From Minisyncoccota bacterium (GTDB lineage Bacteria > Patescibacteriota > Minisyncoccia > Phycocordibacterales > UBA9973): 64,000 nt of DNA. The stretch covers positions 671,515-735,514 of the forward strand of contig JBAZVG010000001.1 of the NCBI GenBank assembly GCA_041661005.1, written 5' to 3'. Every line of letters starts with the position of its first letter. The stretch's first letter is position 1. Made by a program: the position numbers and the translations under genes. Of the stretch, positions 1-58,417 are shown in pieces. Below the pieces are notes generated by a model, which was not told the origin of the DNA, did no database searches, and was given only the letters and a program-made list of their open reading frames with translations.

Positions 1-2492
1 ACGCACGCCAATTTTTGAATCAAATGCCCAAACCAGATGTAGATGAAATTACTGGTCTTTCTCCAGCGATTTCGATTGATCAAAAATCTCGTTCGAACAA
101 TCCGCGTTCGACAGTGGCTACAATTACTGAAATTTATGATTACCTTCGAGTTATGTATGCGCGCATCGGACATCCGCATTGTCCAAAATGTGGAGAAGAA
201 ATTAAAAAACTTTCGAACGAAGAAATTTTAAATTTTGTTTTAGAAAAGATAGATGTTTTGAGTAAAAATTCAAAGAACAACAAAAAAATTATGGGAGTGG
301 AGTGGAATGAGATGCAAATTAATATTTTCTCCCCAATAGTGCGTGGACGGAAAGGGGAATATTATCAATTACTTTATGATTTGCTTGGAAAAGGTTTTTC
401 TGAAATTCGTCTCGATGGGGTGATGAAGAAGCTCCGTGAACAAATAACTCTTTCAAAAAATAAAGCTCACAAAATTGATATTTTAGTCGATAATTTTGCC
501 ATACACGAGTTTAAAGATAATAAAGAAAATAGTCGAATGCGTCTTTCTGAAGCGATTGAACGTGCGTTGATTGAATCTGATGGTCTTGTGACGATTTCTT
601 TTGGTAATCCGGAGCAGAAACATACTTTTTCGAATGGTCTGGCCGGGGGAGGGACCCGGGGAACCGAGGACCTGAGTAAAAAGAATGTTTCTACGGAGGA
701 GGAATTTATTATGTCCGCGAAATTTGCTTGCAAAAATGATGGTTTCTCTTTCCCTGAAGTTGAACCTCGATTATTCTCCTTCAATTCTCCGTATGGCGCA
801 TGTTCGGCCTGCAACGGTCTCGGCTCAAAATATTTTATGGGATCGGAACCTTGTGATGTTTGTCATGGTGCGCGACTTCGTCCTGAAGCCTTGAATGTTT
901 TTTTAACTGCTTCAAAAAAGAAAGTTAATATTTTAGATCTCTCTTCTTTGTCAATTGCTGATGCGCATGATTTTTTTAAAAATTTAAAACTTTCAGAACA
1001 GGAAAAAGAAATATCTGTGCCAGTGGTGCGTGAAATTGAAGCTCGACTTCAATTTATGTTAGATGTTGGCCTCGATTATCTACAGCTTTCTCGCAAGGCC
1101 AACACGCTTTCAGGCGGTGAAGCTCAACGCATTCGACTTGCTTCTCAGCTTGGTTCGCGTCTTGTTGGTGCGCTTTATGTTTTAGATGAACCTACAATCG
1201 GTCTGCATCAACGCGACAACGATCGGCTGATAACAACATTGCAAAATTTGCGGGATTTGGGCAATACTATTTTGATTGTAGAACACGATGAAGACACTAT
1301 TTACGCCTCGGATTATATTGTAGATATTGGACCAAAAGCTGGGGTGCATGGTGGAGAAGTCATTGTGTCTGGATATCTAGAAGAGTTATTAACTGCCAAC
1401 CTCGTAGGAAAAAATACTAAGTCTAGGACCCTTGGCTACCTAAGAGGTGAATTAAAAATAGAAGTTCCCAAGAAGCGACGCGATTCAAAAGGACAGTTGC
1501 GTATCGCCGGAGGAAAAATTTTCAACATAAATAATTTAAATGTTGAAGTTCCCCTCGGTGTGATGACTTCTATTACTGGAGTGTCTGGTTCCGGAAAAAG
1601 TTCTTTTATGTATGAGATTCTTTATAAAAATCTTCAGGCTCGATATGAACGCAAATATCGTTCAGCGCAGGTGTTTAATTGTTCTTCATTTTCGGGTACT
1701 GAATATCTCTCTCGCGTAATTTTGATCGACCAGTCTCCAATCGGCAGAACTCCACGTTCAAATTTGGCGACTTACACAGGTGCGTTTACCCACATTCGAG
1801 ATCTTTTTGCCACGACGGAAGAAGCACGATTGCGTGGCTGGAAAGCAAACCGGTTTTCTTTTAATGTGAAAGGTGGTCGCTGTGAAGCTTGCGAGGGAAA
1901 CGGTGAATTGGCTGTCGAGATGCATTTTTTGCCAACAGTTTATGTGACTTGCGATGTCTGTAATGGAAAACGTTTCGACAAAGAAACTTTAACGGTAAAA
2001 TACAAAAAGAAAAATATTTATGAAGTTCTGCACATGACTGTCGAAAATGGACTTGTCTTTTTTAAAGATATTCCAGCTATTTCTGATAGATTGCAAACTC
2101 TCCTCGATGTGGGGCTTGGCTACCTAGAGCTTGGCCAGAGCGCGACAACGCTCTCTGGAGGAGAGGCGCAACGGGTAAAGATATCTAGCGAGCTTTACCG
2201 TCCACACACAGAAAAAACAATCTATCTTTTAGACGAGCCGACGGTCGGACTTCATTATGACGATGTACAGAAACTTCTAGAAGTTTTAAATAAACTTGTG
2301 GTAAAAGGCAACACCGTTGTTCTCATAGAGCACAACCTTGATATTATAAAAAGCTCGGATTACATTATAGACATAGGTCCCGAAGGGGGAGTAAATGGAG
2401 GTAATTTGGTGGCCAAAGGCACCCCAGAAGAAGTGGCCAATAATTTAAAGAGTTATACGGGAAAGTATTTAAAGAAAGCTCTACGCAAATGA
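1..2492 (+). CDS. uvrA: Excinuclease ABC subunit A (UvrA), 5'-truncated by window edge
   Basis: The frame is open to position 1, so the true start lies upstream and the TTG at 15 is an ORF-caller artefact. Two ABC ATPase domains are present (Walker A 'GVSGSGKSS', signature 'LSGGEAQR' twice) with the UvrA zinc-finger cysteines. Collinear with the UvrA 'GLSPAISIDQKS...' region. Confidence 0.95.
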   Translation, partial: ARQFLNQMPKPDVDEITGLSPAISIDQKSRSNNPRSTVATITEIYDYLRVMYARIGHPHCPKCGEEIKKLSNEEILNFVLEKIDVLSKNSKNNKKIMGVEWNEMQINIFSPIVRGRKGEYYQLLYDLLGKGFSEIRLDGVMKKLREQITLSKNKAHKIDILVDNFAIHEFKDNKENSRMRLSEAIERALIESDGLVTISFGNPEQKHTFSNGLAGGGTRGTEDLSKKNVSTEEEFIMSAKFACKNDGFSFPEVEPRLFSFNSPYGACSACNGLGSKYFMGSEPCDVCHGARLRPEALNVFLTASKKKVNILDLSSLSIADAHDFFKNLKLSEQEKEISVPVVREIEARLQFMLDVGLDYLQLSRKANTLSGGEAQRIRLASQLGSRLVGALYVLDEPTIGLHQRDNDRLITTLQNLRDLGNTILIVEHDEDTIYASDYIVDIGPKAGVHGGEVIVSGYLEELLTANLVGKNTKSRTLGYLRGELKIEVPKKRRDSKGQLRIAGGKIFNINNLNVEVPLGVMTSITGVSGSGKSSFMYEILYKNLQARYERKYRSAQVFNCSSFSGTEYLSRVILIDQSPIGRTPRSNLATYTGAFTHIRDLFATTEEARLRGWKANRFSFNVKGGRCEACEGNGELAVEMHFLPTVYVTCDVCNGKRFDKETLTVKYKKKNIYEVLHMTVENGLVFFKDIPAISDRLQTLLDVGLGYLELGQSATTLSGGEAQRVKISSELYRPHTEKTIYLLDEPTVGLHYDDVQKLLEVLNKLVVKGNTVVLIEHNLDIIKSSDYIIDIGPEGGVNGGNLVAKGTPEEVANNLKSYTGKYLKKALRK
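636..678 (+). repeat. GC-rich in-frame insert in uvrA, homologous to the loop of the uvrA-uvrC intergenic hairpin (reverse orientation)
   Basis: 'ggtctggccgggggagggacccggggaaccgaggacctgag' aligns with the reverse complement of 2529-2570 ('ggtctggctggggcgcggggccccagagaaccgaggacctg'). It encodes 'GLAGGGTRGTEDL', which is absent from canonical UvrA at this point. Confidence 0.7.
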
Positions 2493-2499
2493 TAGTTTC

Positions 2500-2582
2500 G
2501 CCAGCAGAAGCATTTATTCAGGTCCTCGGTTCTCTGGGGCCCCGCGCCCCAGCCAGACCGTTCATAAATGCTTCTGCTGGCT
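2500..2582. repeat. Long hairpin element: 18-bp perfect inverted repeat (gccagcagaagcatttat / ataaatgcttctgctggc) around a 47-nt GC-rich core
   Basis: Perfect arms at 2500-2517 and 2565-2582. The core contains 'ggggcccc' and the family-1 motif. It lies between the uvrA stop (2492) and the likely uvrC start (2595); the ORF-caller ATG at 2568 sits inside the right arm. Confidence 0.8.
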
Positions 2583-2594
2583 TCACATAAATAT

Positions 2595-3968
2595 ATGAAA
2601 ATTGAATCTTTTAAAAAATCAAGATTGCCTGACAAACCAGGTGTTTATTTCTTTAAGAATAAGAAGAGTATTTTATATATCGGAAAGGCGACTTCCTTGC
2701 GGGATAGAGTAAAAAGTTATTTTGGCAAAGACCTGATTGAAACAAGGGGTCCAATACTTGTGGATATGGTTTTTAATGCGGCAAAAATTGACTGGCAAGT
2801 TACTGATAGTGTGCTTGAAGCCATAATCCTTGAAGCGAATCTAATAAAAAAATATCAGCCGAAATATAATACAAAAGAAAAATCTGACAAAAGTTTTAAT
2901 TATGTTTGCATTACAAGAGAACCTTTACCCAAGGTGGTTATCGTGCGGGGTAAAAACCTCGCCCCTTTCCATTTTTCGTCCCTGCGCCCTTCCCTTGAGT
3001 ACAAGGGCGGGACCCTCGGGAAGCTCAAAATAGAAAGGGGCTCGGTTTCATTTACTAGCATATTTGGTCCTTATACTAGCGGTTCTCAACTTCGTGAGGC
3101 GATGAAAATTATCCGCAGAATTTTCCCCTTTTTAGATGATAAAAGTAAAAATTATATGGAGTTTTATAGGCAGATAAATTTAGTGCCTGATTTGGATGAC
3201 CTGCCTCGACTAGGCAAGGCGGGTCGAAAAATGTATTTACAAAATATTAGAAATATAAAATTGTTTTTTGAGGGTAAAAAGAAAAAAGTTTTGCAAAATT
3301 TACAGAAAGAAATGAAAGAATATGCGCAAAAGCATGAATTCGAAAAAGCGGGTGAAGTGAAAAGACAAATTTTTGCTTTGCAACATATTAATGATATAGC
3401 TCTTTTAAGGAACGGAGAGCAGTATGTTCTCAAGGGAACCCTTGGTAGGAGTGGCGACGACGGACAGAGAAAATTTCCAGCAGGAAATTTTCGTGGTGAG
3501 TCTGAGAATATGCTGCTAGAAGTTTTTAAGATAGAAGCCTATGACATCGCCCACATGGGGGGCAAAAATATGGTGGGGGTGATGACTGTTGTTGAAGATG
3601 GGGAAGTAAACAAAAGCGAATACAAAAAATTCAAAATAAAAACTCAAATTAATGCGAATGACACAGGAGCGCTCAAAGAGGTTTTAGAGAGACGTTTGAG
3701 ACACACAGAATGGCCTTTTCCATCTTTAATCGTTGTCGATGGGGGAGTTGCCCAGTTAAATGTGGTAAAAACCGTCTTAAATAAAATAAGTGTAAATATT
3801 CCAGTGGTATCAGTGGTAAAGGATGAAAAACATAACCCAAAAAGTATCATGGGTAATGAAGAATTTATTTCTAAATATAAATCATCTATTTTACTTGCAA
3901 ACAATGAAGCGCACAGGTTTGCCATTGCTTACCATAAAAACATGCGCAATAAAAATTTCTTAAAATGA
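2595..3968 (+). CDS. uvrC: UvrC-like excinuclease subunit (GIY-YIG nuclease, short form lacking C-terminal HhH)
   Basis: N-terminus 'MKIESFKKSRLPDKPGVYFF...ILYIGKATSLRDRVKSYF' is a GIY-YIG motif. The start was refined to the ATG at 2595, outside the hairpin. It contains two GC-rich in-frame inserts (2941-3050 and 3439-3502). Confidence 0.85.
   Translation: MKIESFKKSRLPDKPGVYFFKNKKSILYIGKATSLRDRVKSYFGKDLIETRGPILVDMVFNAAKIDWQVTDSVLEAIILEANLIKKYQPKYNTKEKSDKSFNYVCITREPLPKVVIVRGKNLAPFHFSSLRPSLEYKGGTLGKLKIERGSVSFTSIFGPYTSGSQLREAMKIIRRIFPFLDDKSKNYMEFYRQINLVPDLDDLPRLGKAGRKMYLQNIRNIKLFFEGKKKKVLQNLQKEMKEYAQKHEFEKAGEVKRQIFALQHINDIALLRNGEQYVLKGTLGRSGDDGQRKFPAGNFRGESENMLLEVFKIEAYDIAHMGGKNMVGVMTVVEDGEVNKSEYKKFKIKTQINANDTGALKEVLERRLRHTEWPFPSLIVVDGGVAQLNVVKTVLNKISVNIPVVSVVKDEKHNPKSIMGNEEFISKYKSSILLANNEAHRFAIAYHKNMRNKNFLK
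3439..3502 (+). repeat. Family-2 64-nt element, in-frame within uvrC (copy 1)
   Basis: 62/64 nt identical to 47214-47277 in rnhA. It contains the hairpin 'gaaaattt-ccagcagg-aaattttc' and encodes 'LGRSGDDGQRKFPAGNFRGES'. Confidence 0.9.
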
Positions 3969-4724: not shown

Positions 4725-5909
4725 ATGCAAACAACACAAATCAAAATAAAGAAATTAGCTTCATTTAGAAAGGTTTTTAGTTCTCCATCTGGAAAAAGTA
4801 AAAACATATTTATAGCAGTAGTTAATATTCAAGATATTCCTAAGGAACTTGAAAATTGGCTTGCCATAAATCCGAGAGAAGCAACAACTTCTTCTGGGGT
4901 CAGTAAAAAGATTCAGGCTTCCTTGGTTGAACAACCAGAAGCTTTTGTTTTTAAAAACAGGGGATTGACCGTAATAACTCAAGGAATAAATTTTGACGCT
5001 ACCTCAAATACAGCTTCACTTGAGATGAGAGATCCCAAAATTCACGGGTTATTAGATGGAGGCCATACCTTTAGAGTAATTCAAAATGAATTGACAAATA
5101 CTACAGATGGCAGAGAAGATCTTAAAAATGCTTATGTAAGAATCGAATTTCTTGAAGGCTTTGATGATCTAAACGAAGTTGTCGATATTGTGGATGCTAG
5201 AAATCGATCAGCTCAAGTTAAAGAACAGAGTCTAGAAGAATTAAGAAATCATTTTGAAGCTATAAAGGAAGTTCTTAAAGATCAACCTTACGCAAACAGG
5301 ATCGCTTACAAAGAAATTGAGTTATTAGAAGACGGATCAAAAAAAGATATAGATATTAAAGATATATTATCTTATCTAGTCTGTTTTGATGCAGAAGCGT
5401 TCTCTGATACGAAGCACCCTATTTCTGCGTATTCAGCAAAAGCAACAGCACTGCGACACTACACTGATAATCGTGATCGTTTGGCTAAATATACCCCTCT
5501 TTTGCCCAAGGTACTTAAGTTGGTAGATACAATAAAGCAAGATTTACCGAAAGCCTATAATTCTCAAGGAGGCAGATGGGGTGGTCTACAAGGAGTAATT
5601 ACTGAAAAGGAAAACAAGAAAAAAATTGAGTTACCTTTTATAAGTAGTGACTCAGAATATCAAACACCTTCAGGTTTTATTTACCCAATTCTTGCATCTT
5701 TTCGCTCCCTTGTGGATGTTTCAAAAAACAAGGTAAGCTGGAAAGCAGATCCCGTCGATTTGTTTTCAGAGGTAAAAAAGATGCTTGCTGAGGCTATTGG
5801 TGAACAAGCGATAGAATTTAGGAATCCTAATAAATTAGGTAAAGATAGTGCTACATGGAGATTATGTTATGCTCTGGTTGCTCTTGAGGTTGCTAAAAGA
5901 GGATATTAA
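4725..5909 (+). CDS. Hypothetical protein with ParB/Srx-superfamily-like motif (DGxH; DGQHR/DUF262-like), possible defence-associated solitary gene
   Basis: 'KIHGLLDGGHTFRVI' resembles the DGQHR/DGQQR motif of DndB/GmrSD N-terminal domains. The gene is AT-rich and monocistronic, preceded by a 274-nt non-coding region and followed by a strong terminator. Confidence 0.55.
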   Translation: MQTTQIKIKKLASFRKVFSSPSGKSKNIFIAVVNIQDIPKELENWLAINPREATTSSGVSKKIQASLVEQPEAFVFKNRGLTVITQGINFDATSNTASLEMRDPKIHGLLDGGHTFRVIQNELTNTTDGREDLKNAYVRIEFLEGFDDLNEVVDIVDARNRSAQVKEQSLEELRNHFEAIKEVLKDQPYANRIAYKEIELLEDGSKKDIDIKDILSYLVCFDAEAFSDTKHPISAYSAKATALRHYTDNRDRLAKYTPLLPKVLKLVDTIKQDLPKAYNSQGGRWGGLQGVITEKENKKKIELPFISSDSEYQTPSGFIYPILASFRSLVDVSKNKVSWKADPVDLFSEVKKMLAEAIGEQAIEFRNPNKLGKDSATWRLCYALVALEVAKRGY

Positions 5910-7600: not shown

Positions 7601-7855
7601 ATGCCAATAACACAGTCAGCTAAAAAAGCAATCAGAGGTTCCTTGCGTAAAAAGGCTTTTAATGACAGCCGTAAGCGCGCGATGAAGGAGATAATCAAGA
7701 AAATCGAGAAAATTGCTAAGACAGACAAGAAAGAGGCGCTTAAAATGCTATCTTCGGCTTTTGCTATCATAGACAAAGCAGCTCAAAAGAACGTTATCAA
7801 GAAAAACAATGCTGCTCGCAAGAAGGCTCGTTTATCAAGATTAACCAAAAGCTAG
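7601..7855 (+). CDS. rpsT: 30S ribosomal protein S20
   Basis: 'MPITQSAKKAIRGSLRKKAFNDSRKRAMKE...'. The start was refined to the ATG at 7601, with a -10-like 'tattatat' upstream. Confidence 0.9.
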   Translation: MPITQSAKKAIRGSLRKKAFNDSRKRAMKEIIKKIEKIAKTDKKEALKMLSSAFAIIDKAAQKNVIKKNNAARKKARLSRLTKS

Positions 7856-7870
7856 ACATTTTATTTTTTA

Positions 7871-7934
7871 GGGTACAGATTTTTTGAAGCTTAAAAAATC
7901 CTGAAGTTCTCGGCTCGCCAGCCTCGAAACCCCC
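7871..7934 (+). repeat. Intergenic repeat family, copy A (two-hairpin element)
   Basis: 'gggtacagattttttgaagcttaaaaaatcctgaagttctcggctcgccagcctcgaaacccc' is about 95% identical to 45211-45276 and matches the reverse complement of 49226-49289. Confidence 0.9.
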
Positions 7935-7964
7935 TAAAAAACAAAATCTCCAGCTTTTTAAAAC

Positions 7965-8228
7965 ATGAACCATCTATTAGAATTCTATGGAACGGAATGC
8001 CCACATTGTGTAACAATGCATGGGTTAGTGGAAAAATTAGAAAAAGAAGAAGGAATAAAAGTTGAAAGCTTGGAAGTCTGGCACAACAAGGAAAATGAAA
8101 AGCGTCTTTTGGAATTAGATAAAGATTTGTGTGGCGGTGTTCCTTTTTTATATAACTTAAAATCAAAAAAGTGGATATGCGGGGAAGCGAGCTATGAAGA
8201 GCTAAAGAATTGGGCTCAAGATAAATAA
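7965..8228 (+). CDS. Glutaredoxin/thioredoxin-fold protein (CPHC active site)
   Basis: 87 aa with 'YGTECPHCV' CxxC motif. Confidence 0.6.
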   Translation: MNHLLEFYGTECPHCVTMHGLVEKLEKEEGIKVESLEVWHNKENEKRLLELDKDLCGGVPFLYNLKSKKWICGEASYEELKNWAQDK

Positions 8229-8503: not shown

Positions 8504-8694
8504 TGATTTTTAGTTAAATTATTAAAACAAAAGTGTTCTACGAAATCGACTCTTTTCTTTATCCATTCGGGTCGGGAAACTCTCCAGACCCTCAAGATCT
8601 ACGACCTACTTTGTCTATAGAGCATAGCATAATAGCACCCACTTTGTCAAGTCAGATTATATCTGTCGCTATTTTGTTTAAAATAGGCTAATCT

Positions 8695-10197
8695 ATGAGA
8701 ATGTCTAAAGAAACGAACGATAATCAAAAAACCCAAGAAACTATAGTTAGATTCGACAATGTCTCCTTTGAATGGGGAGTCAATAAGCCTATTTTAGATG
8801 GGGTAAGTTTTACCATTAGGCGCGGTATGAAATTCACTTTGATGGGTCAAAATGGGGCTGGTAAAAGTACTATTTTTGGTTTAATTTCCGGGATTTATGT
8901 TCCTGAGTCTGGGATTATAAATGTTGTCAAAGGAGTCAGTATTGCAACTTCACGTCAAGTGATTCCCAAAGAGGAAACGAGTTTAACTGTGCGGGAATTT
9001 TTTCAGAAATGTTTCAAGGAGAAAGTGTATGATATAGATCCCAAAATTGATGAAGTTTTAGAAGTAGTGAATTTGAAAGGACATGAAAAAGTACACGATA
9101 GGATAATCAAAACTTTTTCCGGTGGACAACAAGCCCGACTGTTGCTAGCCTCTGCTCTTATTCAAAATCCGGATTTGCTTTTATTGGATGAGCCCACGAA
9201 TAATTTAGATAAAGCTGGGATTGTTCACTTGACGAATTTTTTGATTGATTACAAGAAAACAGTTTTGGTTATTTCTCACGACGCAGAATTTCTCAATGCC
9301 TTTACGCAAGGCGTGCTTTATTTAGACGTTTATACAAAAAAGATTGAGCAATATGTTGGTAATTATTTTAATGTGGTTAAAGATATTACCGCCAGAGTTG
9401 AAAAAGAGAATATGAAAAATGCCCAACTGCAAAAAGAAATCCAAGCCAAGAAAGATCAAGCGAATGTGTTTGCTTATAAAGGCGGAAGGCTACGATTAGT
9501 CGCAAAACGCATGCGTGAGAAAGCCGAAGAACTCGAAGAGGAGATAGTGGAAGTGCGAAAAGAAGACAGGTCTATCAGACCTTTTATTATTCCGAGCCAG
9601 CCTGACCTGATAGGGGAGATTTTAAATATTTCTTCTTTTACCACTATGAAAAATGGAAAAATTGTAAAACACAAAGCCAAAATATCTTTGAATAAAAATG
9701 TTCACTTATTGTTGCAAGGTCCAAATGGCATAGGGAAGACGACATTGTTGGAAAGATTGGCCAGTGGTCATGCTGATGGCGAAAAAGTAAAAGAGGGAAT
9801 ACGCATCGGATATTATAGGCAAGATTTTTCTACACTTAATTTTGAAGATACAGTCTATCAATCTCTCGCAAGCGCGATGCTTGCGGGCGGAGAAAAGTTG
9901 GACGAAGAGCGCATGCGTTCTGTGGCTGCTGGATTTTTAATTACTGGAGAATTTATCCGCACAAAGATAGGTGACCTCTCCGAAGGACAGAAAGGGTTGG
10001 TGGCTTTTACGAGGTTGGTTCTCCAAAAGCCCGGGCTTCTTATTCTCGATGAGCCAACCAATCACATAAATTTTCGCCATTTGCCCGTCATCGCTAAAGC
10101 TCTCGATGAATACAAAGGCGCCATGATCCTCGTTTCCCACGTGCCAGAGTTTGTTAAACAGATTCGGATTGATGAAGTACTTGATTTAGAAAAATAG
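8695..10197 (+). CDS. ABC-F family ATPase (tandem ABC domains, no TM domain)
   Basis: Two Walker A motifs ('GQNGAGKST', 'GPNGIGKTT'), two signature motifs 'FSGGQQAR' and 'LSEGQKG', and an inter-domain linker. Confidence 0.85.
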   Translation: MRMSKETNDNQKTQETIVRFDNVSFEWGVNKPILDGVSFTIRRGMKFTLMGQNGAGKSTIFGLISGIYVPESGIINVVKGVSIATSRQVIPKEETSLTVREFFQKCFKEKVYDIDPKIDEVLEVVNLKGHEKVHDRIIKTFSGGQQARLLLASALIQNPDLLLLDEPTNNLDKAGIVHLTNFLIDYKKTVLVISHDAEFLNAFTQGVLYLDVYTKKIEQYVGNYFNVVKDITARVEKENMKNAQLQKEIQAKKDQANVFAYKGGRLRLVAKRMREKAEELEEEIVEVRKEDRSIRPFIIPSQPDLIGEILNISSFTTMKNGKIVKHKAKISLNKNVHLLLQGPNGIGKTTLLERLASGHADGEKVKEGIRIGYYRQDFSTLNFEDTVYQSLASAMLAGGEKLDEERMRSVAAGFLITGEFIRTKIGDLSEGQKGLVAFTRLVLQKPGLLILDEPTNHINFRHLPVIAKALDEYKGAMILVSHVPEFVKQIRIDEVLDLEK

Positions 10198-21192: not shown

Positions 21193-21365
21193 AATTTTAG
21201 TGGATTGAAACTATTTTTTGAAACTTGTTGCAGGTGTAGTTTTAGATAGACATTGCACAGGCTGACGAGCCGAGCATAGCAAATTTTCAGCAGAAAATTA
21301 TGTCGTGTCTAGATAAAACTATACCAAGAAAGAGTTTCAAAAGAAAATAGTTTCAATAATAAATT

Positions 21366-44849: not shown

Positions 44850-45186
44850 TTTTTTTTGCGTTCTCACTTAGATTTTTTTCATCACCCGAAACTTCTGGCC
44901 ATACCCAAATGTGCGCGTGAGATATTTCCTCACCATAAACTTGAGAACGTATAATATCTGCATTAAATGCTTTTTTTTGAGCCAATGCTATTTTTTTAGC
45001 GATTTCAAAATATTCTCCAATATTTGGCACATCCCAAACCCATCGGTAATGCCTTTTTGGTATTATCTGGGTATGGCCCGGACTCATCGGCTTTATATCT
45101 AAAAAAGCCAGGAAATTTTCATCCTCGTAGACTATGTTAGCAGGTATTTCTTTTTTTACTATTTTACAAAAAATGCAATTTTCCAT
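44833..45186 (-). CDS. HIT-family (histidine triad) hydrolase
   Basis: 'MENCIFCKIV...' with histidine triad 'HAHIWVWP'. The start was refined to the ATG at 45186; the longer ORF-caller N-terminus reads through repeat copy B. Confidence 0.8.
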   Translation of the reverse strand: MENCIFCKIVKKEIPANIVYEDENFLAFLDIKPMSPGHTQIIPKRHYRWVWDVPNIGEYFEIAKKIALAQKKAFNADIIRSQVYGEEISHAHIWVWPEVSGDEKNLSENAKKIIQAL

Positions 45187-45210
45187 GGAAAGTTTTTTAA
45201 ATATAATTTT

Positions 45211-45276
45211 TTCCGGTACGGATTTTTTGAAGCTTAAAAAATCCTGAAATTCTCGGCTCGCCAGCCTCGAAACCCC
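45211..45276 (+). repeat. Intergenic repeat family, copy B
   Basis: 'ccggtacggattttttgaagcttaaaaaatcctgaaattctcggctcgccagcctcgaaacccc'. Confidence 0.9.
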
Positions 45277-45389
45277 TTCAAAAATCATATTTCAAAAAAC
45301 TTTATCTATTATATGCTAAAACAATTTCTAATGGAAATTGTTCGCACGAACATTCGCAGGGCGAATGTTTTAGTGCTAAAATTCCATTT

Positions 45390-47090
45390 ATGCAAAAGTA
45401 TGGTGAATTACTGCGGACACTTTTAGAAAAAAGGGGAATTATTGATGAGGCGCAAGCCGATATTTTTTTAAATCCAGATTACAAGCGAGATCTACACGAT
45501 CCTTTTCTGATGCGGGATATGGAAAAAGCTTGTGTTCGTTTATTTGAAGCCATAGAAAACAAACAAAAAATAGTTATTTACGCAGATTATGATTGTGATG
45601 GTATTCCAGGTGCGGTGATTTTAAATGACCTTTTTATTCTTTTAGGATATAAAAATTACGAGGTTTATATACCACAAAGAAATTCTGAGGGATATGGTCT
45701 TAACCTAGAAGCAATAAAAAAAATTGCTAAATCTGGAACCAAACTTTTAATAACCATTGATCTTGGCATCACAGCGGTGGCGGAAGTAGCGCAACTCACG
45801 GTCGATGGCATTGATGTAATAATTACTGATCACCACCTGCCTCGCGTTGACGCGAGTCAAGGCGGGTTTACCTCTTTAATTTTACCTCGCGCTTATGCAA
45901 TTTTAAATCCAAAAGTGGATGACCCACGCCAAGGCGGGGCAAGTTATCCAGAGAAAATGTTGTGCGGAGCGGGGGTTGTCTTCAAATTTGCTCAAGGTTT
46001 TCTAAAAAAATATGGCGAGTATTTCAAAGTTCGAGAGGGCGCTGAAAAATGGATGCTTGACATGGCAGGTCTCGCCACACTTTCAGACATGGTTCCACTA
46101 ACGGGAGAAAATAGAGCTATTGCGTGTTTCGGAATGAAAGTATTGAGAAAAACTCCACGTCCGGGTTTACAGAAACTTCTTGCGAAAATGAATATAGACC
46201 AACGACATCTTTCAGAAGACGATGTGGGTTTTATGGTGACACCACGGTTGAATGCCGCATCTCGAATGGACAATCCGATGCGGGCGTTTGAACTTCTTGC
46301 CACAGAAGACGAGAAAGAGGGGGGCATGCTAGCTGATCATTTGTCAAAAATAAATGATGAACGAAAGACTATTGTCACAGGAATCATGCGTGATGTAAAT
46401 AAAAAGCTTGAAGCGTATGAACACAAAGAAGTGATAGTCATAGGCAATCCTAAATGGCGCATAGGTGTTTTGGGTCTTGTCGCGGGTAAAATTTCTGATC
46501 AGTATCAAAAACCAGTTTTTGTCTGGGGAAAAGATGAAAATGATTGCATCAAAGGTTCTTGTCGTAGCGATGGTTCAGTGTCAGTAGTAGAACTCATGAC
46601 TGCAACTCGTGAATCTTTCATAGATTTTGGTGGGCATGAGCTTGCTGGGGGATTTACGATTCACAATGAGAAGATTCATTTTCTTGAAGAGATATTGTCG
46701 GCGACCTTTAATAAAGTAAAAAAAATTAAAAAAGAAAATGAAGTAGCTTATGATACTACATCTAGTTTGGGTGTAGTTAATATGAAAAATTGGCGTGAAA
46801 TAGAAAAACTTGCGCCCTTTGGATTTGGCAACCCCAAACCAGTTTTTCTCTTTGAATGTGTCAAAATAGACAAAATAAAAAAATTTGGTAAAAATGGTTC
46901 CGGTGAGCATCTGGAAATTATTTTTTCCGACCGGACAGGTAAAGCCAAGGCAATTTCTTTTTTCTCTGGTGTCGATTCTTTTCAAAAGGCTTTAGTCGAA
47001 GGGCTCTCTGTAAACTTACTTGCTACTTTCGACTTGTCTAGATTTAGAGGTAAAGAAGAGTTAAGATTAAGAATTGAGGATATAATTTAA
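45390..47090 (+). CDS. recJ: Single-stranded-DNA-specific exonuclease RecJ
   Basis: DHH motifs ('VIYADYDCDGI', 'ITDHH'), DHHA1 and a C-terminal OB domain. Small GC-rich palindromic inserts lie near the 'ITDHH' motif. Confidence 0.9.
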   Translation: MQKYGELLRTLLEKRGIIDEAQADIFLNPDYKRDLHDPFLMRDMEKACVRLFEAIENKQKIVIYADYDCDGIPGAVILNDLFILLGYKNYEVYIPQRNSEGYGLNLEAIKKIAKSGTKLLITIDLGITAVAEVAQLTVDGIDVIITDHHLPRVDASQGGFTSLILPRAYAILNPKVDDPRQGGASYPEKMLCGAGVVFKFAQGFLKKYGEYFKVREGAEKWMLDMAGLATLSDMVPLTGENRAIACFGMKVLRKTPRPGLQKLLAKMNIDQRHLSEDDVGFMVTPRLNAASRMDNPMRAFELLATEDEKEGGMLADHLSKINDERKTIVTGIMRDVNKKLEAYEHKEVIVIGNPKWRIGVLGLVAGKISDQYQKPVFVWGKDENDCIKGSCRSDGSVSVVELMTATRESFIDFGGHELAGGFTIHNEKIHFLEEILSATFNKVKKIKKENEVAYDTTSSLGVVNMKNWREIEKLAPFGFGNPKPVFLFECVKIDKIKKFGKNGSGEHLEIIFSDRTGKAKAISFFSGVDSFQKALVEGLSVNLLATFDLSRFRGKEELRLRIEDII

Positions 47091-47098
47091 GAATATAT

Positions 47099-47716
47099 AT
47101 GAAACAAAATAAAATAGTTATTTATACAGATGGGGCGGCAAAGGGGAATCCAGGAAGGGCAGGTTGGGGCGCGGTTTTTATAATTTACGGAGGTCAGAAT
47201 ACTCACGAGCGAGCCCTTGGTAGGAGTGGCGACGACGGACAGAGAAAATTTTCAGCAGAAAATTTTCGTGGTGAGTCCGTGGGTATTCTGACCGAAGTAA
47301 TTGAAATTGGCGGAGGAGTAGAACATGCGACAAATAATCAGATGGAATTAACTGCTCCGATAGAGGCGCTGAAATATTTTAAGCAAATAATAAATACACA
47401 GGCAACGCCTGTGTATGATATCGAAATTATTTCTGATTCTAAGTATGTGATCTTGGGAATTACGGAGTGGATTTTTAATTGGCAGAAAAATAATTGGCGC
47501 AATGCTGCCAAAAAGCCAGTTGTAAATCGTGAACTCTGGGAGGAACTTTATGAACTTACCCAAGAATTGAAACCCAAATGGACATATGTCAAAGGACACA
47601 ATGAGGATAAATACAACGACCGTGCGGATCTTATAGCTACAAGTTTTGCGGAAGGCGAGCCGGTGGAGCTTAATCCCGGTAGTAGAGCAAAGCTCACTAC
47701 GGGACAAGGAAAATAA
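47099..47716 (+). CDS. rnhA: Ribonuclease HI with ~25-aa in-frame repeat-encoded insertion
   Basis: 'IYTDGAAKGNPGRAGWG...TNNQMEL...' catalytic motifs. The insertion 'LGRSGDDGQRKFSAENFRGESVGIL' sits between beta strands relative to E. coli RNase HI. Confidence 0.85.
   Translation: MKQNKIVIYTDGAAKGNPGRAGWGAVFIIYGGQNTHERALGRSGDDGQRKFSAENFRGESVGILTEVIEIGGGVEHATNNQMELTAPIEALKYFKQIINTQATPVYDIEIISDSKYVILGITEWIFNWQKNNWRNAAKKPVVNRELWEELYELTQELKPKWTYVKGHNEDKYNDRADLIATSFAEGEPVELNPGSRAKLTTGQGK
47214..47277 (+). repeat. Family-2 64-nt element, in-frame within rnhA (copy 2)
   Basis: 62/64 identical to 3439-3502, in the same orientation and the same codon phase. Confidence 0.9.
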
Positions 47717-47734
47717 AATACTTTTTATTATTCT

Positions 47735-49216
47735 ATGCGAGATAGAATTTTTTATGCAATATGTTTTGGTTTTATTTTTGGAGTATTTTTACGCTCTTTT
47801 TTCTTCATAAATTTTTATTTCGTACTGTTTCTTGCTTTCTTGGCAAGTGTCTTAATTATCTACTTTAGTTTAGTAAAGTTTGAATGGGGAATAATCGCCG
47901 GAATTTTTCTGTTAGTGTTTTCACTTGGAATTTTTAGATTTCAGGTGGTTGATGTTTTAGCACCTAATATTTTTGAGTCTCAAGTTGATAAAAAAATTTC
48001 TTTATCGGGAATTGTTGTAGATGAGCCGGATATTAGGGAAAATAATCAAAAATTAACTATTGAAACGAAATCGGACGCTCTGAAAACGAAAATTTTAGTT
48101 ACTGTGAATTTTGGTCAGGATTTTAAATATGGAGATGAGATAAAATTTTCTGGAAAATTAGAGAAACCGGAGAATTTTACGACTGATCAGGGTAAAAACT
48201 TTGACTACATAAATTATTTGCGAAAAGATGGCATTCATTACGTAATGAATTACGTAACTGCTGAAATTATTTTACGAGGGAATGGTAATTTTATCAAAAA
48301 TACCCTGTTTTCTATTAAAGAAAAGTTTTTAGAAAAAATGAATTTGGCGATACATGGTTCCGAATCGCTCTTGATGGGTGGGCTTATTTTAGGGGAGAAG
48401 GCTTCTTTTAGCCAAGAATTAAGAAAGAATTTTATTGATACAGGCACGATACACATAGTGGCTCTCTCTGGCTACAACATTACTATAATTGCCGAATGGA
48501 TTATGAAGTTATTTGCTTTTTTACCTAAAAATCTTGGCATAGGGGTGGGTATTTTCGCAATTTTACTTTTTATATTAATGACTGGCGGAAGTTCTACAGC
48601 AATACGAGCAGGGATAATGGCTACACTTGCGCTTATTGCCCGCGCGACAGGTAGGAATTACGATGTCGCGCGGGCGCTCCTTCTCGCTGGTGTGGGAATG
48701 ATTTTATTAAATCCATTTGTATTGGCGTATGATGTTTCTTTTCAGCTTTCTTTTATCGCCACAGTTGCTGTTATTTTCTTGGCGCCGAAGATTGAGAAAT
48801 ATTTTTTATGGGTGCCGGATATTTTTAAATTGCGGGACATTGTATCCGTTACTTGCGCCGCGTATATCTTCGTTTTACCATTCATCCTCTACAAAATGGG
48901 AAATTTATCTCTGGTTGCCTTACCGGCGAATGTTTTAATTTTACCTTTTATTTCTTTTACCATGGCGCTCGGTTTTCTGACTGGCTTTGTTGGACTTATT
49001 TCACACATGCTGGCAGTGCCGTTTGGGTTTATTTCATATTTATTCTTGCATTATGAACTTGGTGTGATTGATTTTTTCTCTAGTCTTCCATTTGCTTCTT
49101 TTTCTATTCCAAATTTTCCTCTCATTTTGACAATCTTAATTTATATCTATTTTATTTATAGACTTTTTGGCAGAAACATAAAAAGTTTTTTTATTGAATT
49201 TAAAAATCAAGAGTAA
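47735..49216 (+). CDS. comEC: ComEC/Rec2 competence (DNA internalisation) membrane domain, encoded separately from its MBL domain
   Basis: 493 aa, polytopic, with a competence-domain pattern. No metallo-beta-lactamase domain is present within this ORF. Confidence 0.7.
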   Translation: MRDRIFYAICFGFIFGVFLRSFFFINFYFVLFLAFLASVLIIYFSLVKFEWGIIAGIFLLVFSLGIFRFQVVDVLAPNIFESQVDKKISLSGIVVDEPDIRENNQKLTIETKSDALKTKILVTVNFGQDFKYGDEIKFSGKLEKPENFTTDQGKNFDYINYLRKDGIHYVMNYVTAEIILRGNGNFIKNTLFSIKEKFLEKMNLAIHGSESLLMGGLILGEKASFSQELRKNFIDTGTIHIVALSGYNITIIAEWIMKLFAFLPKNLGIGVGIFAILLFILMTGGSSTAIRAGIMATLALIARATGRNYDVARALLLAGVGMILLNPFVLAYDVSFQLSFIATVAVIFLAPKIEKYFLWVPDIFKLRDIVSVTCAAYIFVLPFILYKMGNLSLVALPANVLILPFISFTMALGFLTGFVGLISHMLAVPFGFISYLFLHYELGVIDFFSSLPFASFSIPNFPLILTILIYIYFIYRLFGRNIKSFFIEFKNQE

Positions 49217-49225
49217 TGTTTTTAA

Positions 49226-49289
49226 GGGGTTTTGAGCGCGACGGCGCGAAAATTTCAGGATTTTTTAAGCTTCAAAAAATCCGTACCGG
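49226..49289 (-). repeat. Intergenic repeat family, copy C (inverted orientation)
   Basis: 'ggggttttgagcgcgacggcgcgaaaatttcaggattttttaagcttcaaaaaatccgtaccgg' is the reverse complement of copies A/B. The GC hairpin ggct-cgcc-agcc is replaced by cgcg-acgg-cgcg, a compensatory change. Confidence 0.85.
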
Positions 49290-49310
49290 CAAAAATATTA
49301 CTCTTGATTT

Positions 49311-49910
49311 TTATTTTGCTTCAATAAAATTCTTTTCAATTACCTCCCAATTTAAGTTTTCAAAAAATGCCTCTACATATTTTTTCTTTTCTGAAGTAGG
49401 GTAGTCGTAAACGAAAGCATGTTCCCACATATCCAGCGCAAGAATTATCTTACAAGTGGCAAGTTGTCCCAAATGCTGTTCGTCTACCCATGCATTTAAA
49501 AGACGTTTGGTTTGAGGATCATAGTAGAGCATAGCCCAGCCTATGCCACGGGTAAGAGCTGTAGATTTAAAACGATTAAGCCACACGTCAAAAGAATTCC
49601 ATTCGGCAACGATAGCTTGTTTTAATTTACTATCATCCGCGAGAGTGTGAGCTCCACCAGAAAGAGATTCAAAATAAATCTCATGATTTCGCATGCCATT
49701 GTATTCAAATCCGAATCTGCGCTGGATTTCGCTTACGACGTAGGGCGCAAAAGCATCCTCTTTCGCATAACCCTCGTATTCAGGAATTTTTTCCAGAATA
49801 AGATTCGTATTTTTCACATAACCCGCATAGAGCTTTAGATGCTCTTCAATGTTTTTAGCTGATATTCCTTTCAATGTTCCGATATTAAATTTTATTTCTT
49901 CAAATTTCAT
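49311..49910 (-). CDS. sodA: Superoxide dismutase, Fe/Mn family
   Basis: '...HHxxHH...' motifs and the C-terminal 'DMWEHAFVYDY' motif. Confidence 0.9.
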   Translation of the reverse strand: MKFEEIKFNIGTLKGISAKNIEEHLKLYAGYVKNTNLILEKIPEYEGYAKEDAFAPYVVSEIQRRFGFEYNGMRNHEIYFESLSGGAHTLADDSKLKQAIVAEWNSFDVWLNRFKSTALTRGIGWAMLYYDPQTKRLLNAWVDEQHLGQLATCKIILALDMWEHAFVYDYPTSEKKKYVEAFFENLNWEVIEKNFIEAK

Positions 49911-58325: not shown

Positions 58326-58417
58326 GCGAAGTTTTTGTAAAATTTCTTGAAACTGCGCCCTCGAGGTCATAAGGACAGGGAACCCACACGTTTCTTAAAA
58401 TTTTGCAAAAACTTCGC
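58326..58417. repeat. Long hairpin element: ~28-bp AT-rich inverted repeat around a 36-nt GC-rich core, between dut and argS
   Basis: Left arm 'gcgaagtttttgtaaaatttcttgaaac'; right arm reverse complement 'gcgaagtttttgcaaaattttaagaaac'. The core 'tgcgccctcgaggtcataaggacagggaacccacac' contains the palindrome cctcgagg. Confidence 0.8.

Follow-up and report, generated by a model that had tools for sequence, protein, structure and literature searches.

The window analysed here comprises 64,000 nucleotides (nt) of a Minisyncoccota genome (assembly GCA_041661005.1, contig JBAZVG010000001.1, positions 671,515 to 735,514), is AT-rich (38.8% GC) and falls in Patescibacteria/Paceibacteria according to protein searches. 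It starts within uvrA, an uninterrupted open reading frame (ORF) at 3-2492, and uvrC comes next with its start ATG at 2596. One GC-rich segment inside uvrA (copy A) and another in the uvrA-uvrC spacer (copy B) proved to be two copies of a dispersed hairpin repeat. Positions 636-674 on the plus strand match the reverse complement of 2519-2559, and the best local alignment, about 51 nt in length (631-681, plus strand, against the reverse complement of about 2512-2563), has about 80% identity with a central 2-nt length difference. The exact blocks GGTCTGGC (8 nt) and GAACCGAGGACCTG (14 nt) are common to both copies. The 14-mer occurs twice in the 64 kb (661-674 on the plus and 2519-2532 on the minus strand) where 0.10 occurrences are expected, and two or more matches were never reached in 100 dinucleotide shuffles. 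A covariance model of the family assigned 90.6 bits to copy B (2489-2591, minus strand) and 75.1 bits to copy A (604-705, plus strand), the third-best match in the window reaching 21.6 bits. The correspondence between the uvrA segment and the reverse complement of the spacer, which had been proposed in a first-pass annotation of the sequence, is therefore confirmed by alignment, shuffle control and covariance model.

The same annotation contrasted a bare core in uvrA with a core set into a hairpin in the spacer, and this contrast did not hold, because both copies have arms of their own and form complete hairpins of about 80 nt, in the order arm, T-run, nGAAT, GC-rich tip, TGAn, A-run, arm (Table 1). 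They have the same fold, with an outer stem GGUCU/GGACC, then GG/CC, and bulges rGAA and GA that lie on one side, the 3' strand; the inner stem differs in sequence with its pairing kept (CCGGG/CCCGG in copy A, CUGGGGC/GCCCCAG in copy B). Copy B folds with an energy of -52 to -54 kcal/mol (z-scores -8.7 and -9.3). Copy A lies in frame within uvrA and encodes GLAGGGTRGTEDL; the inserted block amounts to 84 nt (28 codons, about 615-698) and encodes roughly QKHTFSNGLAGGGTRGTEDLSKKNVST, with FSNGLAGGGTRGTEDLSKK as the peptide stretch of the sense frame and VLGSPGP among the antisense-frame equivalents of the tip. Copy B, inserted between the uvrA stop and the uvrC start, would likely give a very stable stem in the operon mRNA. 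As a terminator it was considered and rejected: a scan for intrinsic terminators found no site at 2500-2581, and no U tract lies 3' of the stem, where the sequence reads TTCACATAAATA. The possibility that copy B is a direct duplicate of copy A including its arms was likewise not supported, as arm similarity between the two is no higher than between copy B and unrelated members; what the arms have in common is a loose purine-rich consensus.

Table 1. Coordinates of the hairpin features in the 64-kb window.
Feature	Position	Strand	Sequence or remark
Copy A, complete hairpin in uvrA	614..694	+	Hairpin scan, folds, covariance model, gap of 28-30 amino acids in UvrA relatives
Copy A, 5' arm	614..630	+	GCAGAAACATACTTTTT; pairs with 678-694, one mismatch
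Copy A, 5' junction	631..635	+	CGAAT; family consensus nGAAT
Copy A, GC-rich core (tip), 37 nt	636..672	+	GGTCTGGC-CGGGG-GAGGGA-CCCGG-GGAACCGAGGACC; translated GLAGGGTRGTED
Copy A, 3' junction	673..677	+	TGAGT; family consensus TGAn
Copy A, 3' arm	678..694	+	AAAAAGAATGTTTCTAC; pairs with 614-630
Copy B, complete hairpin in the uvrA-uvrC spacer	2500..2581	-	Top strand is the minus strand of the window
Copy B, 5' arm (element orientation)	2564..2581	-	GCCAGCAGAAGCATTTAT; perfect 18-bp inverted repeat with 2500-2517
Copy B, core, 39 nt	2521..2559	-	GGTCTGGC-TGGGGC-GCGGG-GCCCCA-GAGAACCGAGGACC
Copy B, junctions	2560-2563; 2518-2520	-	GAAC; TGA
Copy B, 3' arm (element orientation)	2500..2517	-	ATAAATGCTTCTGCTGGC
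Second in-frame family, in uvrC	2954-3048	+	Arms AAACCTCGCCCCTTTC / GAAAGGGGCTCGGTTT, tip TCGTCCCTGCGCCCTTCCCTTGAGTACAAGGGCGGGACCCTCGGGAAGCTC
Family D1	3418-3517 (uvrC); 47192-47293 (212-amino-acid ORF 47078-47713)		79% identical over 130 nt
Family D2, intergenic	7855-7950; 45193-45298; 49201-49313 (inverted)		Tip GGTACAGATTTTTTGAAGCTTAAAAAATCCTGAAGTTCTCGGCTCGCCAGCCTCGAAACCCC
Long hairpins with GC-richer loops, apparent singletons in the window	9552-9645 (ORF 8692-10194); 58326-58417 (intergenic)		20-bp arms at 58326-58417
Short GC-rich motif	3196-3230 (uvrC); 45830-45870 (ORF 45231-47087)		CCTGCCTCG...CAAGGCGGG

Insertion sites in orthologous loci

For the UvrA site, 80 UvrA loci were retrieved from metagenomes by protein similarity and the distance between two conserved anchors was measured. 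UvrA homologues of 76-83% identity in a first alignment lacked the segment. The short form, with 52-56 amino acids between the anchors (...LVTIKIGEEEFIMSAKF), was found in 54 of 76 sequences, and the long form was confined to the nearest relatives (81-85% identity), whose inserts add 25, 26, 29, 30, 38 amino acids and so on, all of them multiples of three nt. On the solved UvrA structure 9gxw the insert falls between residues 257 and 262, at a four-residue turn, and copy A adds to this surface turn a 28-amino-acid loop rich in Gly, Arg, Thr and Glu. The earlier statement that canonical UvrA has no such segment is borne out by the four residues present there in solved structures and by the majority of relatives without insert, and the orthologue alignment that had been suggested places the peptide outside the conserved part of UvrA. 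As a separate observation, the UvrA of the window, a protein of the candidate phyla radiation (CPR, here used for Patescibacteria), is without the insertion domain of about 115 residues of canonical UvrA (query 177/178 corresponding to 9gxw 305/421).

Among the long forms, the UvrA of the Nomurabacteria metagenome-assembled genome (MAG) L066 is 82% identical to that of the window and has a hairpin at the same turn with homologous arms (arm peptides NPEQKHTFSN...LSKKNVSTEEEF vs DPTRKSAFSQ...FKKATSASEF in the L066/window comparison), and its tip together with the junctions is inverted, from GAAT...TGA to TCA...ATTC. The clade has arms in common at this site, GCAGAArnATrCTTTTT / AAAAAGnATnnTTCTGC, on which several different tips stand: the tip is in sense in the window, L118 and L124/L125, in antisense in L066 and L120, and enlarged by an extra nested stem-loop in L119; L123 and L155-L157 have a different 25-nt tip with the same junctions, and other tips are found in L165 and in L153, the latter less certain as a replacement on the same arms. 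L120, L124 and L125 derive from groundwater series such as those of Hainich and Rifle. The description of the core as the content of a hairpin loop was thus apt insofar as orthologous sites flip or replace the tip and keep the arms, and fell short in that the unit is larger than had been noted. Other small GC-rich hairpin inserts were also seen in UvrA relatives, at the same four-residue turn in L130/L144, L170/L178/L189, L175, L171 and L163, and the uvrA gene of L066 has further small inserts at amino acids ~170-200 and ~400-415. The UvrA loops (this turn and two more) are recurrent landing sites for several unrelated elements.

In the spacer, uvrC of L118 and L120 starts 1-10 nt past the uvrA stop codon without a hairpin, where the window has one of 82 nt, and L066 carries in the same spacer a hairpin of another family, D2 (5790-5890), with unrelated arms. 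With no spacer hairpin in the closest relatives and a D2 hairpin in L066, copy B is best read as an insertion specific to its lineage, at a spot where elements land recurrently.

Among the other host clusters, each of the eight largest has copies with the tip in either orientation, at or close to the same site. Opposite tips occupy identical alignment columns in PolA, LigA and the CCA-adding enzyme, and overlapping or near-identical columns in PheT, an aminotransferase, TsaD, UvrB and site a of UvrD; for the CCA-adding enzyme the arms of L067 (sense) and L115 (antisense) were checked directly and are clearly homologous. Site b of UvrD is empty in L037 and L107. One arm of the copy in L033 runs into conserved helicase coding sequence, EKFSNLTDIAIL, which is shared with L068, and its other arm is the inverted copy of that host sequence, so that arms can be extended by copying across the hairpin. 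The broader proposal that arms are generally copied from the host flank at insertion was rejected, given that the UvrA arms are absent in the 54 empty-site relatives and the spacer hairpin is absent in the closest ones; L033 is retained as evidence of occasional arm extension only. The UvrD/PcrA-like helicase of L032 additionally has an intein-like insert (C...HN|C) of ~370 amino acids after VVGDTDQ, absent from four orthologues.

Distribution, anatomy and genic copies of the family

The genome-wide repeat census proposed in the annotation was carried out on one genome per species (GTDB; 596 Gb) with the pattern GGTCTGGC-N10-28-GAACCGAGGACC. It returned at least 117 stretches, and about 106 of those listed are in Patescibacteria (Nomurabacteria, Paceibacterota and Patescibacteria MAGs, some labelled Saccharibacteria), several assemblies carrying at least four copies each. 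Another 11 listed matches are in high-GC genomes of other phyla; by our own estimate, about 20 chance matches are expected for 20 specified bases in 596 Gb. A long inverted repeat surrounds every listed CPR match but none of the non-CPR ones (arm score ≤7), so the latter serve as a built-in control for the CPR family. Among the matches listed, the family is essentially confined to Patescibacteria. A scan of viral contigs with the same pattern gave one phage tRNA-Pro (L198, an IMG/VR contig, 8711-8787) and one GC-rich chance match.

A copy of the family is an imperfect hairpin of 78-130 nt. Its GC-rich, structured tip of 34-48 nt consists of GGTCTGGC, a variable stem-loop and rGAACCGAGGACC, and is bordered by the short junctions nGAAT and TGAn, a T-run with matching A-run, and locus-specific arms of 15-30 bp that are still complementary. 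Two tip variants could be distinguished: genomes of low GC content have CYGGGG-loop-CCCCRG, those of higher GC content CCGAG-[stem]-CGAGG. In an alignment of 108 copies, T stands at junction position -1 in 92 and A at position -2 in 98, and past position -11 no base reaches 50% in the arm columns except in one A-rich column (51%); what is conserved among copies is the T-run, the junction and the tip, and the termini are least conserved. The arms remain paired in 82.7% of their cells, and all 14 arm pairs show double changes, each using AU, UA, GC and CG. The arm covariation score is 0.58 vs 0.13-0.25 in slid controls, and none of 500 shuffles reached it. On the top strand the arms are purine-rich, with GCAGA, CAGAA and CAGAG enriched 4-6 fold. 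Copies persist for long at orthologous sites, where their arms co-vary and the tip flips or is replaced in place.

Copies were counted as genic when they lay in a stop-free frame of 150-1200 amino acids with at least 30 amino acids on either side. By this definition 71 of the 111 listed CPR copies (64%) are in long ORFs and 40 are outside, in keeping with the earlier suggestion that the sequence family is tolerated in coding and non-coding DNA alike. With the tip as reference, 20 of the listed genic copies run in sense and 51 in antisense, every one of the six frames occurs, and all 71 are in the host frame without a stop codon, the tip nucleotides being read as NGLAGVGDPENRGPEK, EWSGRGRDPENRGPEK, SGPRFSGSLPQPDHSK, QVLGSPGPYPGQTI or RSSVLWGPAPQPDH according to frame and orientation. 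The hosts identified by Pfam are PolA, PheT, LigA, TsaD, CCA/polyA polymerase, UvrB, class-V aminotransferase and amidase, with UvrA and UvrD/PcrA-type helicase as further hosts. With a tip of 39 nt in sense frame 0, the TGA of the junction would fall into the reading frame; the sole such copy (L003) has CGA in its place, which argues for selection at the level of translation. Since the frame is kept and no stop codon occurs, the genic copies are probably translated. The family is, in sum, a dispersed, phylum-restricted hairpin repeat that enters spacers and essential genes, with the frame kept.

Proposed template switching and rival explanations

Our preferred reading, which we consider moderately probable, is a selfish, non-autonomous insertion element, small and palindromic, that is native to Patescibacteria (Paceibacteria/Nomurabacteria) and of which the two segments are copies; it resembles the Rickettsia palindromic elements (RPEs) and would be maintained by template switching. 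The hairpin would form as single-stranded nucleic acid of the top strand, and template switching across it during replication would copy one arm from the other, which would account for the multi-base compensatory changes and for arm extension; the same process would invert or exchange the tip. Template switching is documented in PMC8794818 to lengthen stems, invert loops and bring compensatory changes at several bases, and all three published signatures are present in the Patescibacteria element. It probably keeps the arms paired and inverts the tip, and in that case the palindrome could be kept without need for a cellular function.

Several points weigh against this reading. Without a systematic search, neither a transposase or recombinase nor an autonomous partner came to light, and the 104 folded copies yielded no convincing target-site duplication and no consistent flanking repeat. 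The repeat CGGAG on either side of copy A (610-614 and 694-698) shares bases with the palindrome TCCG...CGGA, which confounds it as a sign of target-site duplication. Among arm mismatches in tip orientation, G.T/T.G outnumber A.C/C.A by 89 to 40, although for complementary arms the two classes should be equal by chance. The antisense genic copies keep this excess (58 vs 23), though the mRNA there is the other strand; hence the folding strand appears to be the element's own top strand and not the mRNA as such, and the excess points to a strand-specific folded form. The tip ends, moreover, are invariant in both orientations in copies that were retrieved by protein similarity and not by DNA pattern, and around the invariant tips of the UvrA site the arms are visibly different with UvrA 81-85% identical. 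Such constraint on the tip exceeds that of plain junk and needs either function or concerted evolution among copies. Finally, translation of the genic copies is judged from intact ORFs.

Some of these features would fit a functional cis-acting RNA, for example one that binds protein, is processed by an RNase or acts as a stabiliser, with a host protein reading the tip: the tip ends are invariant across species and orientations, the one-sided bulges (rGAA, GA) are conserved and tandem G.A motifs recur in variant tips and junctions, arm covariation is strong, and G.T exceeds A.C on one strand. We regard this explanation as quite unlikely, however, because orthologous sites carry the asymmetric tip both with and against the direction of transcription, antisense genic copies are 2.5 times as numerous as sense ones among the copies listed, the favoured G.T of the antisense copies would be C.A mismatches in mRNA, and presence or absence varies among close relatives. 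Nor did the element match any Rfam family even at permissive thresholds; with Rfam 15 only a tRNA in the window reaches the gathering score, E-value scans of both copies returned only miRNA-hairpin noise far below threshold, and ARAGORN placed no tRNA at copy A or B. Kink-turn, signal recognition particle-like, attC and hammerhead readings of the tip were rejected on account of an unfit strand arrangement and the absence of any Rfam match. The 5' end of the tip's bottom strand, GGTCCTCGGTTC, equals the variable-loop/T-stem/T-loop start of tRNA-Lys(UUU) of the same genomes (L042, L050, L061, L082, L123, L132, L143); the complementary T-stem strand and acceptor end of that tRNA have no match to the tip, and the phage tRNA-Pro (L198) matches the whole 20-nt search pattern. 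Only ~5 of the matching nucleotides are free to vary, so the 12-nt identity with the T-arm of tRNA-Lys and the phage tRNA-Pro match are probably due to chance.

Alternatively, the tip could be a single-stranded DNA (ssDNA) recognition site for a dedicated enzyme, either an HUH/Y1 transposase, as with the repetitive extragenic palindromes (REPs) and their REP-associated tyrosine transposases (RAYTs) or with IS200/IS605, or a recombinase or invertase, by which the element would be actively mobilised. The pairing asymmetry of the top strand is independent of the direction of transcription, tips have repeatedly been flipped and swapped in place, and junctions and T-run/A-run architecture recur across several tip families. 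The element further resembles the hairpin sites of HUH enzymes in its layout of conserved tip and variable arms. Yet no candidate enzyme turned up, none having been looked for systematically, the GTAG or CGTC tag of REPs is missing, the listed intergenic copies are unbiased with respect to local strand composition (21 vs 19), and a target-site duplication or cleavage motif is not defined; an enzyme of this kind is thus unlikely. Replication-strand bias was rejected with the same intergenic counts, as local GC skew just follows gene orientation. A further possibility, of low probability, is that the conserved tip is the real mobile or functional unit, a strand-specific single-stranded module homing into resident hairpin tips and inverted or exchanged by an ssDNA enzyme or by inter-element template switching at the T-run/A-run junctions. 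If true, mobile DNA of a kind undescribed so far, a 'hairpin-tip cassette' system across the phylum, would continually rewrite surface loops of essential CPR proteins. The colonisation of new sites, the conservation of the tip and the preference for the top strand lie beyond the template-switch model, and a dedicated ssDNA enzyme or some tip function may account for them.

That the genic copies remain untranslated, being removed as mini-introns or bypassed by the ribosome like the yeast mitochondrial 'byp' elements, is very improbable. GC-rich hairpins in an AT-rich genome are superficially like mitochondrial GC clusters or byps, and the RNA fold is very stable; against this, all 71 listed genic copies are in frame and stop-free in essential genes, the UvrA inserts are 3n in length, and CGA stands in place of the junction TGA just where the latter would be in frame. 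An excised or bypassed element would escape such frame and stop constraint, which therefore counts against it. Still more remote, and in our view barely credible, is a likeness by chance, or a UvrA domain of this lineage with no more than a resemblance to the spacer. In its favour, only two copies lie in the 64-kb window, but chance is ruled out by the shuffle controls and by the more than 100 copies in other genomes and genes, and a UvrA domain was rejected because most UvrA relatives lack the segment, copies exist in other genes and the same nucleotides give different peptides according to orientation.

Other hairpins of the window and known systems

The window contains about 11 such hairpin elements, roughly one per 5 kb, which include further families (Table 1). 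The tip of the second in-frame family in uvrC also occurs in the UvrD-like helicase of L068, on other arms. Both D1 copies are in frame (..LGRSGDDGQRKF..NFRGES..), and part of the D1 tip (CAGCAGAAAATT) is present at 21237-21321. D2 arms are locus-specific, with T-run and A-run, and the covariance model weakly detects the three D2 copies (7839-7965, 45183-45307, 49194-49319) by the arm/T-run/A-run architecture alone. The two apparent singletons may belong to other tip families, and the short GC-rich motif may represent another small insert family.

The closest known counterparts are the RPEs, short palindromic repeats of a reduced AT-rich genome that form several families and occur in spacers and, to an unusual degree, in frame in unrelated housekeeping ORFs, whose products accommodate the extra peptide in their fold (PMC10969869). 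As with RPEs, the Patescibacteria element is a multi-copy dispersed hairpin found in frame in unrelated housekeeping ORFs, its added peptide is tolerated by the fold, and the insert is absent from orthologues and located in a surface loop. It differs in belonging to another phylum, so that homology to the RPE-1 to RPE-10 consensus sequences would not be expected, the comparison being one of behaviour and not of sequence, and in its size (~80-100 nt, vs ~100-150 bp for RPEs). Moreover, RPE families each encode a conserved peptide, whereas the Patescibacteria element conserves a GC-rich tip of 34-48 nt that is read in six frames and stands on locus-specific arms. Inversion or replacement of the tip in place is documented in the Patescibacteria element, and to our knowledge has not been reported for RPEs.

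Miniature inverted-repeat transposable elements, or MITEs, are similarly small, non-coding and multi-copy, have inverted-repeat ends and can produce in-frame fusions (PMC10969869). However, a MITE family is defined by terminal inverted repeats common to its members, by target-site duplication and by a parent insertion sequence (IS) element; in the Patescibacteria element the termini are the least conserved part, no clear target-site duplication is seen, and no parent IS element is known, without a systematic search. With REPs and bacterial interspersed mosaic elements (BIMEs) of the RAYT systems it has in common a GC-rich imperfect palindrome thought to act as a single-stranded hairpin, present in multiple copies and within operons. 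REPs, as described in PMC3733652, are 20-40 nt long and extragenic with a GTAG or CGTC tag, unlike the Patescibacteria element, which is 78-130 nt long, has no such tag but a structured tip, and is intragenic in 64% of the copies listed.

The mobile GC clusters and byps of yeast mitochondria are GC-rich hairpins that have invaded a genome rich in AT, coding regions among the sites. A byp disrupts the frame of its gene and the ribosome skips it, in contrast to the Patescibacteria element, which keeps the frame and is stop-free. For Nematomorpha mitochondria, PMC6649704 describes inverted repeats in coding sequence with both arms translated. The template-switch hairpins (PMC8794818) and the Nematomorpha palindromes are single-locus events or unrelated perfect repeats, whereas the Patescibacteria element has a conserved tip family at >100 loci in many species. 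Because this tip family is common to so many loci and species, template switching inside a single hairpin alone is an insufficient explanation. Full-text literature searches found no description of such elements in CPR; in-frame palindromic elements are known as a kind, and in Patescibacteria they are, as far as we found, apparently undescribed.

Patescibacteria have genomes among the smallest of the free-living type and are assumed to be streamlined, yet on the reading favoured here they are not free of selfish DNA, and core proteins of replication, repair and translation (PolA, LigA, UvrABCD, aminoacyl-tRNA synthetases, TsaD) carry selfish hairpins that are, as judged from sequence, translated. 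The element accounts for a class of unexplained 'insertions' in CPR proteins and is relevant to annotation and structure prediction; in phylogenomics, the inserts should be masked from alignments. Orthologous hairpins with flipped or swapped tips also constitute a large natural data set on the upkeep of coding palindromes by template switching. The phenomenon for which the Rickettsia RPEs were formerly the standout example is hereby extended to an unrelated lineage with reduced genomes.

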